The notes under the pieces: model-generated
Seen by the model: the letters and a program-made list of their open reading frames with translations, nothing else
The model's database searches: none
Told to the model about the DNA's origin: nothing
Virus genome (UHGV): UHGV-0234394
Direction: 5' to 3' (one strand)
Length of the DNA stretch: 36,353 nucleotides
From: a virus
Shown here: one piece after another, positions 21,477-25,894 of the stretch
How positions within the stretch are numbered: position 1 is the first letter of the stretch
Layout: every line of letters starts with the position of its first letter
Made by a program: the position numbers and the translations under genes

Positions 21477-24323
21477 ATGAAATATGGTGCCATTATCACA
21501 GCGGCTGGCGCTGCCAGGCTTGCTGCAGCCACAACAGCAACAGGCCAGAAGCTGAACATCACTCACATGGCCGTGGGAGATGGTAATGGAAATCTCCCGG
21601 AACCATCGGCCTCACAGACCGCCCTGAACAATGAAGTCTGGCGCGGGACGCTGAATAAAATTACACAGAACAGCAAAGCGCCAAATCAGGTGATTGCGGA
21701 ACTGGTTATTCCTCCGGAAGTTGGCGGCTTCTGGATGCGGGAGCTGGGGTTGTATGACGACAGCGGAACCCTGATTGCCGTCGCCAATATGGCAGAAAGC
21801 TACAAGCCGTTACTCGCCGAAGGTTCGGGGCGCTCAATGGTCTGCCGCATGTTCATCATCATCAGCGATATGAACGCGGTGAATCTGTCAGTGGACAGCA
21901 GCGTCATTGCCGCAACACAGGAATATGTTAACGAAGCCATCTCCGGCCTGCACCGCGCCATCATTGATGATGTGGTTCTTCAGCATAAAGTTGTCCACGA
22001 TATTGACTACACCGGGATTTTTGACGGCGCGGATAAGATGAGCCAGGGGTTCTGTATCTGTGATACGCCGCAGGGAACCCGAATGTTTCTGCATCAGCCT
22101 GTATCGGGTGGCGTAAGGATTGTTGAAACGATATTTAACCCTGACGGAGAAAACGAAAACCCGACGGTCATTTCGTTTTCTCCCGTTTTCGCTGATATTG
22201 GTCACCAGAGTATCGGGGCTGTATGTGAAGACGATCGCGTGATGCTGTATACCCCGACCGCTGACGGCAAGGGTGTGAATATCATCAACTGGAATGGGGC
22301 TGACACCAGTCTGACAGATGTCACCCGTACGGAGATTTTCACCTCTGACTTTTTTACCGGGGATGAAATTATAACGGTGGCATTGTCGGCAGACGGAAGC
22401 CTGTTAATTGTTCAGTCAGGTGATGAGGCCGTCCATCTTCATTACAACAGGGATGATCGCCGCACAGTTTATGTTTTCGATCGCGCCTCTCTGACGTTTA
22501 AACACCGGATTTATCTGTCCACCCAGCCAATGGTGTCGCAGGCATTTCAGGGGATGGCCAGCGATGGTCATTATCTTTTTGCTTATTACGGTTATACAGG
22601 CGTATTTCTGACTCACCGCATTGTTGTATATAACCTGTCAACGGGCGAAGTTGTCAGACAGTTCAATGTGGATGGCGTTCGTGCCAGGTATGGTCGCCAG
22701 AAAATGCTGGGGAATGCAGAGCTGGGGTATCCCGTTTTGCAGGAAGCCGAAGGGCTGGCTCTCCATAACGGAAAACTGTATCTGCTCGATATGGATTTCT
22801 GGTGTCAGACAGCCGATGTGGTTTCTTTTGAGGGGGCATACTTTGCAGCACGTGCAACAAATTTTTCTGGCCGTTCCCCGGTGAATCCATCTTACTGGAC
22901 GCCTACAGCATATGGAACGGCGGCTGCAACGAAATATGATGCCACGAAGTCTTATACGTGTGGTGTGGCGACAAAACGCAGCAAAGCTGTGGTTTCCGTG
23001 GAGGCTTACGACGGCACAGGCTATCTGGTGGACTCCGGCGTGGCGTTTCCTGATAGCCATGCCAGCCTTTTTCTGAGTCCCAATGCTGTAAATATAGCCC
23101 TGTCACCCAATGAAGACTTCCAGGTGGCAGCCTATGAGCAGAATCTGCGCTCGCATCGCCCGTTATTTGAGGTCAGAAAGGAGGCTCCGGATACAGACAC
23201 TTCTGCTGCTGTTTTTCGTTTGTTCGGGGATGCGTTCCGAACCGGAGAATACACAGGCCGCTTCGTTCAGTGGAAACACCGCCTGAACGACGTGCACGAT
23301 TGTCTGGAAATACGCGCTGACGTGGATTTGTTGAGCGGTGGCGGGATTAACCTTTACTCAATGAACGATACTCAGTCGGCGGGACGCACAAGGCTTTATT
23401 GCACCGATGGCAGTGAAACCTGGTCTGTATTATTGAGTCCGGTCTCGCCGTCATTTCATCCCGACCAGGACAAGGCAATGAATCTGGGGTCATCGCCAAA
23501 TCGCTGGAATGTGGCATACCTGCAGGGCGTGAATATTAAATCGGATGACGAAACCCAGAAGCGCATGGCCATCAGCACCACGCTGAAGGCGGGAGCTTTC
23601 CAGGTATCAACAGCCGGGAATCTGGGTATTTATGACGATTCTGCTGACGCTTATGTAATTGCAGCCCGTAGTGACGGCACTGCATTCATGCAGATGGATA
23701 CAGATATTAACGGTGCATTCCGGCCATCGGTTAACAATACCAGCGACCTGGGTGCGCCCAACAAAGCATTCCGGAGCGTGTATCTCTGCAACTCGCCGAC
23801 CATTGTGTCGGATGCGACGTTAAAGGATACACCGCGCGATGCGACGGCAGCCGAAAACGCGGCATTTGCAGAAATAGCACGGCTTCCGGGCGTGTGGCGC
23901 TGGTTACAGAGAATTGAGGAGGAGGGCGAGGACGCGCGTCTGCACGCCGGGCCGACAGTCCAGGCCGCGATAGCCGTGATGGAGAAACACGGTCTGGACT
24001 GGCGGAAATACAGCGCATTTTGTCTGGATTCGTGGGAAGCGGAGGAGGCACAGTACGAAGATATACCGGAAGAGTATGAAGATATTCCGGTTCAGCCAGC
24101 GATTTATTCGGATGAAGGGGAGCTGTTGAGCGGGACAACCCGTGTGCTTACCCGACAGGCGGAAAGGGTTCTTGTTCGTCCTGCAACCGAAGCAGGAAGC
24201 CGTTATCGCTTCCGGAAAGAGGAGCTTCTCTGGTGGTGTCTGCGTGCTGTTGTCAGCCAGGTGGATGCGCTGACAGAGAGTATCAGCGCACTTACCCGCC
24301 GTGTTGATTTACTGGAGGAATAA
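21477..24323 (+). CDS. H: tail fibre protein (P2 H-like N-terminus) with divergent C-terminal region and apparent intramolecular chaperone domain
   Basis: N-terminal about 150 aa closely resemble P2 H (ELVIPPEVGGFWMRELGLYDDSGTLIAVANMAESYKP); C-terminal part contains SDATLK at codon 778 (nt 23808). Confidence 0.85.
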   Translation: MKYGAIITAAGAARLAAATTATGQKLNITHMAVGDGNGNLPEPSASQTALNNEVWRGTLNKITQNSKAPNQVIAELVIPPEVGGFWMRELGLYDDSGTLIAVANMAESYKPLLAEGSGRSMVCRMFIIISDMNAVNLSVDSSVIAATQEYVNEAISGLHRAIIDDVVLQHKVVHDIDYTGIFDGADKMSQGFCICDTPQGTRMFLHQPVSGGVRIVETIFNPDGENENPTVISFSPVFADIGHQSIGAVCEDDRVMLYTPTADGKGVNIINWNGADTSLTDVTRTEIFTSDFFTGDEIITVALSADGSLLIVQSGDEAVHLHYNRDDRRTVYVFDRASLTFKHRIYLSTQPMVSQAFQGMASDGHYLFAYYGYTGVFLTHRIVVYNLSTGEVVRQFNVDGVRARYGRQKMLGNAELGYPVLQEAEGLALHNGKLYLLDMDFWCQTADVVSFEGAYFAARATNFSGRSPVNPSYWTPTAYGTAAATKYDATKSYTCGVATKRSKAVVSVEAYDGTGYLVDSGVAFPDSHASLFLSPNAVNIALSPNEDFQVAAYEQNLRSHRPLFEVRKEAPDTDTSAAVFRLFGDAFRTGEYTGRFVQWKHRLNDVHDCLEIRADVDLLSGGGINLYSMNDTQSAGRTRLYCTDGSETWSVLLSPVSPSFHPDQDKAMNLGSSPNRWNVAYLQGVNIKSDDETQKRMAISTTLKAGAFQVSTAGNLGIYDDSADAYVIAARSDGTAFMQMDTDINGAFRPSVNNTSDLGAPNKAFRSVYLCNSPTIVSDATLKDTPRDATAAENAAFAEIARLPGVWRWLQRIEEEGEDARLHAGPTVQAAIAVMEKHGLDWRKYSAFCLDSWEAEEAQYEDIPEEYEDIPVQPAIYSDEGELLSGTTRVLTRQAERVLVRPATEAGSRYRFRKEELLWWCLRAVVSQVDALTESISALTRRVDLLEE

Positions 24324-24325
24324 TT

Positions 24326-24610
24326 ATGGACTTAACACCGGTGTTCCATGCACTTTGTGCGGTGGCCACTCAGTTTCTGGTGGGTCTTTTTACCGGAAAC
24401 TGGGCTTACGGAGCGATAGCCGGTTGCACGTTCTTCATTGCGCGTGAACACACCCAGGCAGAATATCGCTGGATTGAAATGTTCGGGCATGGCAGGCGTA
24501 TGAATATGCCGTGGTGGGGCGGTTTTGACCCACGAGCGTGGGATATGGCAAGTCTGATGGATTTTGCAGTGCCGGTGGTGGCATGTCTGCTGGTCTGGCT
24601 GGTCGTATGA
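24326..24610 (+). CDS. small membrane protein (94 aa) at the position of P2 Z/fun
   Basis: Track ORF starting 2 nt after H stop; two or three hydrophobic segments; followed by an intrinsic terminator. Confidence 0.55.
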   Translation: MDLTPVFHALCAVATQFLVGLFTGNWAYGAIAGCTFFIAREHTQAEYRWIEMFGHGRRMNMPWWGGFDPRAWDMASLMDFAVPVVACLLVWLVV

Positions 24611-24622
24611 CGTAGCAGGAAA

Positions 24623-24647
24623 CAGGGGGATTTGCCCCTGTTTTTTT
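24623..24647 (+). terminator. intrinsic terminator
   Basis: Stem cagggg/cccctg followed by T7. Confidence 0.6.
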
Positions 24648-24778
24648 GTTCAGAATGCAGCCTTCACCATTCGTCTCTAATCGTATTCAGTAATTCGCCC
24701 GCAGAAACAAACTAAAATTCATCCCCCACATCACGCCACTGAAAGCAGACGGTAAACTCCAGATTTTCAAACCAGCGT
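24648..24778 (-). pseudogene. degraded duplicate of the 3' end of tail gene U
   Basis: About 130 bp, roughly 75-80% identical by eye to 25429-25560 (3' end of intact U) in direct orientation, including an identical 21-mer ttcagtaattcgcccgcagaa; in-frame stops in the copy. Confidence 0.6.
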
Positions 24779-25093
24779 CAGAAGTATTTAAATGGCACCA
24801 GATGTAATATGCAGGCGATTAATATGGTGTGCTTAAAGATCATAAAAGCGGGCAACATTAAAACTCTGGGCTGTGTAAATTACCGCCACTCATAATCAGA
24901 GATGAAAACAGAATTAAACTGGCGGCGTGGATTGTATACATAAAATAAGTTCAGTTGTTGACTTTCACTTCCGTGAGTTGATGAGGGTTATTACAATACA
25001 CCGGTATGATCTCTCCTCCTTAAAAGGGAGGACTTTTCAGAACGCAGAAATTATTTATAATCCCGTAGTGTTCTACACATGCCAACATTCTTT

Positions 25094-25118
25094 GCCCGCC
25101 CCGTGCGGGCTTTTTTTT
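25094..25118 (+). terminator. intrinsic terminator in a non-coding island
   Basis: gcccgc-cccgt-gcgggc followed by T8. Confidence 0.6.
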
Positions 25119-25208
25119 GCCATAAAGACACAGTAACAAACAGAATTGTAATCAGAGCAATAAAATCATGAAAAACATTTTCATTGATGACGATAACAAT
25201 TAAAAATA

Positions 25209-25238
25209 TTGCATTAAATGATTCCCGTTCAATATAAT
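25209..25238 (+). promoter_or_regulatory. sigma70-like promoter (TTGCAT-18-TATAAT)
   Basis: -35 at 25209-25214, -10 at 25233-25238. Confidence 0.45.
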
Positions 25239-25244
25239 CCCCCT

Positions 25245-25305
25245 GCAACCAGAAAAATTAAATCTTCACACAATGCATGTTGCCCTCTTTATGAGGGCTT
25301 TTTTA
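25245..25305 (+). ncRNA. candidate small RNA (about 60 nt) between promoter and terminator
   Basis: Promoter above followed about 45 nt later by hairpin gccctc/gagggc (25282-25298) and T-run; no credible ORF with SD. Confidence 0.3.
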
Positions 25306-25397
25306 TTTCCCGAATATCACCATTGCCATCATCGGGCGATTTATATATAGTCAGAATGTATTGACAACATTTTGCTTCTTTTCCATGAAGGCCATAA

Positions 25398-25427
25398 GGG
25401 AGTGCTTTTTACACTCCCTCTTTTTTT
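25398..25427 (+). terminator. intrinsic terminator abutting the 3' end of U
   Basis: gggagtg-loop-cactccc followed by TCTTTTTTT. Confidence 0.5.
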
Positions 25428-25429
25428 AT

Positions 25430-25894
25430 TCAGAATGCCGCTGTCGCCATTTTGTCTTTAAGCGTGTTCAGTAATTCGCCCGCAGAAGCAGACTGAAACC
25501 TCTCCCTCATATCCTCATCACACCGCTGAAAGCTGATGGAGAACTCAATCTTTTTTGCCTTTCCGTAACGATCCAGTTCGGAGCGGGTGGTCTGTAATCC
25601 CGTAATCACGTACATTCCGTAAATCTGCCCCGTGCCATCAATCAGCGGCCAGGGACATCCTGTGTAGGCCTGGGTGTTCAGTAGTGTCAGCGACACCTCA
25701 CCGCCGGTAATTTCCGGGTACAGCAAACCGGACAGCGTGATCTGGTCATCACCTGCACCGATATACTGCCAGGCTGCAGAGCGGTTAATGCGCTCATTTT
25801 TCACATGTCGCCATGTTTTGCTCTGCTGGATCTGCTGATGCGGCAGCGTGCGCAGCTCAAAAACAAACATGCCGTAGATCATCATCATGGTCAT
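25430..25894 (-). CDS. U: tail protein U
   Basis: 154 aa; size and position next to the tape measure as in P2. Confidence 0.75.
   Translation of the reverse strand: MTMMMIYGMFVFELRTLPHQQIQQSKTWRHVKNERINRSAAWQYIGAGDDQITLSGLLYPEITGGEVSLTLLNTQAYTGCPWPLIDGTGQIYGMYVITGLQTTRSELDRYGKAKKIEFSISFQRCDEDMRERFQSASAGELLNTLKDKMATAAF

Follow-up and report, generated by a model that had tools for sequence, protein, structure and literature searches.

A recombination scar from a tail-fibre cassette exchange beside an older block of three putative small-RNA genes in a P88-like prophage of Escherichia coli

Organization of the locus

In this work, the AT-rich non-coding island between the tail-fibre genes and gene U (gpU) was analysed in UHGV virus genome UHGV-0234394. 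The whole stretch of 36,353 nucleotides is called the window here, and it represents a P88-like prophage (Xuanwuvirus, Peduoviridae) of Escherichia coli. The island consists of two adjoining parts of different age, a scar at 24621-25049 and a conserved block at 25034-25430. Our preferred reading, which we hold with moderate confidence, is that the scar was left by the swap of a tail-fibre cassette and that the older block carries three small-RNA (sRNA) genes with products of approximately 50, 60, and 70 nt. The features of the locus, in window positions, are the following.

21477-24323, plus strand: tail-fibre gene, 948 aa
24326-24610, plus strand: orf94, a small membrane-protein gene and the end gene of the imported fibre cassette (PHROG 1443, function unassigned, E = 2e-55)
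24621-24647, plus strand: intrinsic terminator of orf94 and left end of the duplicated segment, found by terminator scan (also listed as 24625-24647) and homologous to the RNA3 terminator
24648-24778, minus strand: pseudogene fragment of the gpU 3' end, approximately 40 codons, repeat copy A (blastn, tblastn, direct-repeat families D1, D3, and D4)
24779-24823, plus strand: remnant of an H-like tail-fibre gene, its last 14 codons at 24779-24820 (tblastn against the C-terminus of P2 H)
24824-25049, plus strand: pseudogene of a tail-fibre assembly gene (tfa, P2 gpG-like), residues ~16-137 deleted
25034-25118, plus strand: unit 1, with promoter TTTTCA-16-TATAAT (25034-25061), predicted RNA1 at ~25068-25118 (~50 nt), and terminator at 25094-25118
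25119-25208, no strand: AT-rich spacer between units 1 and 2, evolving at a neutral rate
25209-25305, plus strand: unit 2, with promoter TTGCAT-18-TATAAT (25209-25238), predicted RNA2 at ~25245-25305 (~60 nt), and terminator at 25282-25305
25306-25428, plus strand: unit 3, with promoter TTGCCA-17-TATAGT (25323-25351) and predicted RNA3 at ~25358-25428 (~70 nt)
25430-25560, minus strand: repeat copy B, the last ~130 bp of the intact gpU gene
25430-25894, minus strand: intact gpU tail gene (Pfam Phage_P2_GpU, E = 1e-39; "phage tail protein" in RefSeq)

The island is the meeting point of two convergent late operons, namely the fibre operon on the plus strand and the operon of the sheath, tube, tape-measure, and U genes on the minus strand; the tape-measure gene lies beyond gpU and is read from the minus strand too. 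The GC content is 0.35-0.42 over 24700-25400 compared with 0.51-0.57 in the flanks, which confirms the AT-rich character given in a preliminary description of this DNA made from its letters alone. The same description saw no credible open reading frame (ORF) here. This also holds, as the RefSeq annotation is empty at this place in every matching genome and the small ORFs are broken in relatives. Over the 1.6 kb around the island, identity is 100% with the AH21B066 chromosome and 99-100% with those of many other strains, ST131 isolates included. Isolated P88-type phages match in the U gene only, at ~81%. Matches to the prophage occur in ST131 and other extraintestinal E. coli isolates, and the prophage may correspond to the conserved P2-like "tailocin-like" prophage of ST131 (PMC9205054).

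Duplicated end of U and remnants of the former fibre region

The preliminary description proposed that a degraded copy of the U 3' end lies in direct orientation approximately 650 bp from the intact one, and the two segments were indeed found to be related by repeat finding, blastn, and tblastn. Repeat finding gave three collinear pairs at a start-to-start spacing of 780-787 bp, namely 24636-24671 with 25416-25451 (83% identity), 24670-24732 with 25451-25513 (79%), and 24726-24767 with 25513-25554 (76%). Copies A and B are 74.6% identical over 126 nt by blastn (E = 4e-17), and the minus strand of copy A matches gpU residues 114-148 with 43% identity by tblastn (E = 3e-6). Copy A has the orientation of the intact U and lacks the upstream two-thirds of the gene. 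Its coding capacity has been lost through an in-frame stop within the alignment, a second stop near the 3' end, and a deletion of two codons. As judged from these alignments, 24648-24778 is a true pseudogene fragment of gpU. The repeat does not end at the U stop codon but includes the adjoining terminator, and therefore it starts at approximately 24621, about 27 bp to the left of the position 24648 given previously. In this part, the hairpin at 24621-24639 aligns with 25397-25419, the T-run is alignable as well, and an A-T to G-C change is present on both sides of the stem. Furthermore, the U stubs of two sub-lineages are 70% alike and each of them is 75-83% like the resident U, which is the pattern expected from independent decay of a single ancestral copy. 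The stub has no match among the U genes of other genera or of P88, so the donor was a close relative.

The U fragment sits directly against the H-like fibre codons and the decayed tfa. It had previously been overlooked that 24779-25049 comprises the end of a tail-fibre gene and a tfa remnant. In a distant DNA search, 24778-24869 on the plus strand showed 80% identity to the H/G junction of P2 and SfMu. The N-terminus of the tfa remnant is represented by its first 15 codons (24824-24868), which match P2 G by tblastn, and the C-terminal piece at 24895-24978 by 28 aa, which are 64% identical to the tfa of E. coli strain 135 and contain an in-frame stop. Intermediates of this decay exist, since a further ~340 bp of tfa survive in SCU-172 (L004) and a tfa fragment of 70 aa is annotated in TUM9803 (L003). 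A hairpin at 25012-25037 was considered as a functional element and rejected, as it lies inside the tfa remnant, is lineage-specific, and is without conservation. A 14-nt inverted repeat with 93% complementarity, probably fortuitous, connects 24845-24858 in the tfa remnant with 25277-25290 at the beginning of the RNA2 terminator.

Origin of the scar

In the 948-aa fibre encoded in front of the island, the N-terminus is a tail collar of the P2 type, and the C-terminal domain is an intramolecular chaperone, Peptidase_S74 (tailspike-like, PHROG 19921). The next gene, orf94, gave no Pfam match, and its DNA is ~90% identical to an ORF located after the side-tail-fibre region of many lambdoid phages of E. 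coli. Because orf94 is shared with lambdoid phages, the cassette of fibre and orf94 moves between P2-like and lambda-like phages. The lambdoid homology ends at 24601, just before the stop codon and ahead of the terminator, and it follows that the terminator and the U stub came from a P88-like donor. This end point also agrees with a cassette that travels between types of phage. The fibre-cassette scar is ordinary phage mosaicism.

The state before the exchange can be seen in E. coli strain 135 (L066), which has an intact fibre gene, an intact tfa of 187 aa, a non-coding block of ~380 bp, and U, with no U fragment. Its tfa stop codon corresponds to window positions 25047-25049. Since the block is present in this strain between intact tfa and U in the absence of the stub, it is ancestral, older than the scar, and not inserted cargo. 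The layout of the window, with the same right-hand junction, recurs in relatives that are only ~80% identical (L003, L004, L005, and L007), and a junction common to such distant relatives indicates a single, old event. These comparisons establish the anatomy of the island and the order of events. One of these relatives, E. coli H1827/12 (L007, 4329-6111), carries a deleted prophage in which the counterpart of window position 24608 is fused to a terminase fragment. The head, baseplate, and fibre genes are gone, from the terminase through the fibre, and the island, U, and the tape-measure gene are retained.

We propose, as the simplest history, that the ancestor of the P88-like lineage of E. coli had the order fibre, tfa, non-coding block, U, and that the donor was a related phage with another fibre cassette in the order fibre, orf94, terminator, U. 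One unequal (illegitimate) crossover would have joined the donor, ~130 bp inside U, to the recipient, ~45 bp before the end of its fibre gene. The left side of the product would then consist of the donor fibre, orf94, terminator, and U stub, with ~160 bp of donor terminator and U 3' end dragged along, and the right side of the recipient fibre stub, tfa, the block, and the whole U. Both tfa and the U stub would have decayed after the crossover. The present fibre has its own chaperone domain, so tfa may have become useless and been lost for this reason. This explanation is qualified by relatives that have the same scar and a decayed tfa and carry a different fibre.

Three predicted transcription units in the conserved block

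In the preliminary description, the island had one promoter-terminator pair. The promoter TTGCAT-18-TATAAT is exactly where it was reported (TTGCAT at 25209-25214, TATAAT at 25233-25238) and is that of unit 2, but there are three promoter-terminator units, not one. All three plus-strand terminators reported there were recovered as well (25094-25118, 25282-25305, and 25397-25428), and a fourth is present at 24625-24647. The promoters are of the sigma-70 type and the distance from promoter to terminator is 33-46 nt in each unit. The -35 element of unit 1 lies within the last codons of tfa, and its terminator is a GCCCGC/GCGGGC hairpin followed by 8 U. Predicted RNA2 begins with ~14 variable nt, continues with the invariant 22-mer TTAAATCTTCACACAATGCATG, and ends in its terminator with 6 U, which is borderline against the ~7 or more expected of Hfq-type sRNAs. 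The terminator of unit 3 is an 8-bp hairpin (25397-25419) with a T-run that abuts the U stop codon, and the tail of RNA3 would be C followed by 7 U. There are 7 terminator-like sites in the 1.6-kb stretch compared with 1.4 ± 1.4 in shuffles, and the hairpin T-runs are all on the plus strand.

The fold z-score is -3.3 for RNA1 and -2.9 for RNA3. The terminators and U-tails of the predicted RNAs agree with those of Hfq-type sRNAs, and the bodies are predicted to be unstructured. Each RNA would thus have an unstructured body, a GC-rich hairpin, and 6-8 U, which is the build of base-pairing regulatory RNAs of the Hfq type, and the open bodies in the predicted folds would suit RNAs that pair through a seed. 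Conserved segments predicted to be single-stranded are present at 25068-25093, 25259-25281, and 25358-25396. When the units were compared with one another, alignment was confined to the terminators of units 1 and 2 (p = 0.01). The bodies are without significant similarity, so no claim of sibling RNAs is made.

Conservation of the block

The island was aligned in nine distinct variants. Fractions of polymorphic sites were calculated in seven variants, with the third-codon positions of U as the reference rate (0.32, 49/154). The fraction was 0.67 in the U stub and 0.55 in the tfa remnant. It was 0.33 (30/90) in the spacer between units 1 and 2, the same as at the U third-codon positions. Lower values were found in RNA1 (0.12, 6/51, p = 0.006), in the conserved part of RNA2 with its terminator at 25259-25305 (0.06, 3/47, p = 2e-4), in the P3 region (0.08, 4/52, p = 4e-4), and in RNA3 (0.17, 12/71, p = 0.02). 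Over 25259-25428, 19 of the 170 sites are variable versus 49 of the 154 third-codon positions of U (p = 5e-6). In the unit 2 promoter, no site of the -10 hexamer varies (0/6) while 12 of the 18 spacer sites do, which is the signature expected of a working promoter. Moreover, there are almost no indels in the block and many in the adjoining pseudogenes, and the stem of the RNA3 terminator has a compensatory G-C to C-G change in L003 and L066 by which pairing is kept. From the comparison of these variants, it can be concluded that the block is under purifying selection. The ~60-nt RNA predicted earlier at 25245-25305 fits the comparative data.

The RNA2 region from the -35 element to approximately +15 (25209-25258) occurs in two haplotypes that are 50-65% alike and lie between invariant flanks; in most variants no change is seen in the 47 nt that follow. 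Pairing with the downstream invariant AAUGCAUGUU is possible for either 5' haplotype, which is no more than a hint, as there are only two of them. With an invariant 3' half and a two-allele 5' end, the putative RNA would be modular, and its 5' end may be a swappable segment for targeting or for structure.

Distribution of the block

The block is present in 72 of 5,426 complete E. coli genomes, ST131 included. Scans of IMG/VR and of metagenomes recovered it in six and five contigs, respectively, and all of these belong to the same lineage. It is absent from 50,697 phage records, from plasmids apart from a terminator-sized match, and from 52 gpU loci of other genera searched by blastn and nhmmer; P88 is also without it. 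The gap between tfa and U in other genera is 30-160 bp, and because of this short gap and the low GC content the block would fit the definition of a moron. It is absent from relatives in which the flanking genes are close together, its GC content deviates, and a promoter and terminator are predicted for all three units. The literature search turned up no account of sRNAs located between tfa and U in a P2-like phage.

A different conserved element was observed in the gap between tfa and U of other genera. Its parts are a terminator on the plus strand, a box resembling TAyAGT, and a hairpin of the form CAGCACrG...CTGTGCTG. The hairpin stands just before the U stop in some genera and ~60 bp away, ahead of a further GC hairpin, in others. 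The carriers are P88-like prophages of Serratia, Symbiopectobacterium, Enterobacter, Kosakonia, Pantoea, Izhakiella, and Mixta, with the element at L014:4483-4595, at L017:4483-4592, and at ~4489-4650 in L021, L023, L027, L029, and L030.

Interpretation of the island

On the available sequence comparisons, the most likely identity of the block is three RNA-only morons arranged in tandem. The three units are self-contained and on the plus strand, and they would give three small RNAs. These would probably be expressed from the prophage like other morons and would probably act in trans on mRNAs of the host or of rival phages, and the terminators of the units would also serve to close the plus-strand fibre operon. 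Transcription, dependence on Hfq, action in trans, and the existence of targets are inferred. Several observations speak against this reading. The three units are predictions from sequence, and the -35 hexamer of unit 2 is weak (3/6), which is why its promoter was not listed by the scan tool; the -35 hexamers of units 1 and 3 are better. Duplex energies against 38 translation start regions of the prophage were no better than those of shuffled RNAs, and no antisense partner of at least 20 nt was found in the 5,426 E. coli genomes. In the covariance scan that the preliminary description had suggested (Rfam 15, permissive, 24200-25700), nothing was above threshold; the best score was 22.7 bits for SpF51 against a threshold of 50, and every match rests on terminator hairpins. 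Structural conservation is limited to the terminator hairpins, and nine near-identical variants provide almost no covariation. The block is confined to one E. coli lineage, so that its conservation may in part reflect recent shared ancestry or recombination. Finally, a donor with orf94 directly beside a whole U was not found in the complete E. coli genomes.

The main rival is that the block is a stack of plus-strand terminators which insulates the convergent late operons, that the promoters are chance hexamers in AT-rich DNA, and that there are no functional sRNAs. The fibre and sheath-to-U operons do converge here, every hairpin has a plus-strand T-run, the tfa-U gap of other genera likewise keeps a terminator and a hairpin, and it is in the hairpins that structure is conserved. 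On the other hand, the strongest conservation lies outside the hairpins, with the 22-nt TTAAATCTTCACACAATGCATG and the 52-nt P3 region invariant or nearly so. The -10 hexamers are invariant beside a variable spacer, and a single terminator suffices in relatives. We regard the insulator as unlikely. It is less probable again that the whole island is non-functional debris and that the conservation of 25034-25430 comes from recent descent or a recombination tract. Such an origin would agree with a block that is limited to 72 of the 5,426 genomes and a few metagenome contigs, that has no homologue in other genera, and for which the searches gave no annotation, no Rfam family, and no target. Alternation of conserved patches of 50-120 nt with neutral or hypervariable ones is, however, not what one recombination tract would produce. 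In addition, the true debris next to it, the U stub and tfa, is rich in indels while the block is nearly free of them, and the block has been retained in the prophage remnant of L007 in which the head and fibre genes are missing.

The preliminary description had seen a recombination scar around inserted cargo, that is, foreign AT-rich DNA inserted in or next to U, with the two U ends as the duplication made by the insertion. The scar stands and the cargo does not. Direct repeats do flank an AT-rich segment, but strain 135 shows that the segment is resident DNA, with the same block between intact tfa and U and no repeat. The segment between the repeats also opens with the resident fibre and tfa remnants, and the incoming DNA is the left cassette. 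The repeats are ~160 bp long and 75-83% alike, not the short identical duplications of a transposable element, and no transposase or integrase ORF and no terminal inverted repeats were found around the island. Insertion is thus very improbable. Hardly any probability remains for a small protein or a type I toxin-antitoxin pair encoded in the island. There are short ORFs on both strands, for example a TTG-started ORF of 65 codons on the minus strand with a hydrophobic stretch. No small ORF is conserved among the nine variants, however, as start codons disappear and each candidate is interrupted by 1-nt indels, and no Shine-Dalgarno sequences were seen for the short ORFs of the island.

Beyond the preferred reading of a cassette-swap scar beside three sRNA genes, we tentatively hypothesize that the units are three undescribed sRNAs of a P88-like prophage lineage that occurs in extraintestinal E. 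coli, ST131 included, that RNA2 is modular, and that in lysogeny they reprogramme host genes or hinder competing phages. This extended proposal is possible and rather doubtful.

Relation to known systems

The block resembles the morons of other phages (Z/fun, tin, and old of P2, and those of lambda/HK97), which are likewise AT-rich, have their own promoter and terminator (predicted in the present case), and stand between genes that are closely adjacent in related phages, at a module boundary by the tail-fibre genes. The known P2 morons encode proteins, whereas the units described here are without ORFs and would be RNA-only, three in tandem. Among prophage sRNAs, DicF (Qin), AgvB/AsxR (Stx phages, PMC4104026), PasA-D (bioRxiv 10.64898/2026.05.13.724894), and IsrK (PMC4825925) are also short, start at a promoter of their own, and end in a GC hairpin and a U-tail, and they too are carried by prophages and limited to some lineages. 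None of them has a sequence or Rfam match to the units. They are located in lambdoid prophages near Q, lysis, or immunity genes, whereas the present units lie between tfa and U of a P2/P88-like prophage; svsR and the Pas sRNAs belong to lambdoid prophages and to other positions.

In P88, the same slot between the fibre genes and the convergent U holds an invertible tail-fibre segment and a DNA invertase, and it is a site of host-range module swaps there too. Unlike the P88 slot, the island has no invertase, alternative fibre end, or crossover sites, and contains the scar and the non-coding block instead. As at other exchange scars of tail-fibre cassettes, the cassette is common to unrelated (lambdoid) phages and gene stubs remain at the joint. 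Unlike the usual fibre/tfa mosaic joints, this joint is non-homologous and duplicates part of a gene of the opposite, convergent operon, which is less commonly documented.

Significance

The repeat of U and the DNA that had appeared merely non-coding are a readable record of a host-range fibre-cassette swap and of the later decay of a chaperone gene. Beside this record, ~400 bp of unannotated DNA in clinically important E. coli clones have evolved 2-5 times more slowly than the neighbouring synonymous sites. The block is a plausible candidate for addition to the prophage-encoded small RNAs. If the RNAs are real, they would add to the few sRNAs known from prophages of the P2-like rather than the lambdoid type, and they would be directly testable for effects on host physiology or phage exclusion.

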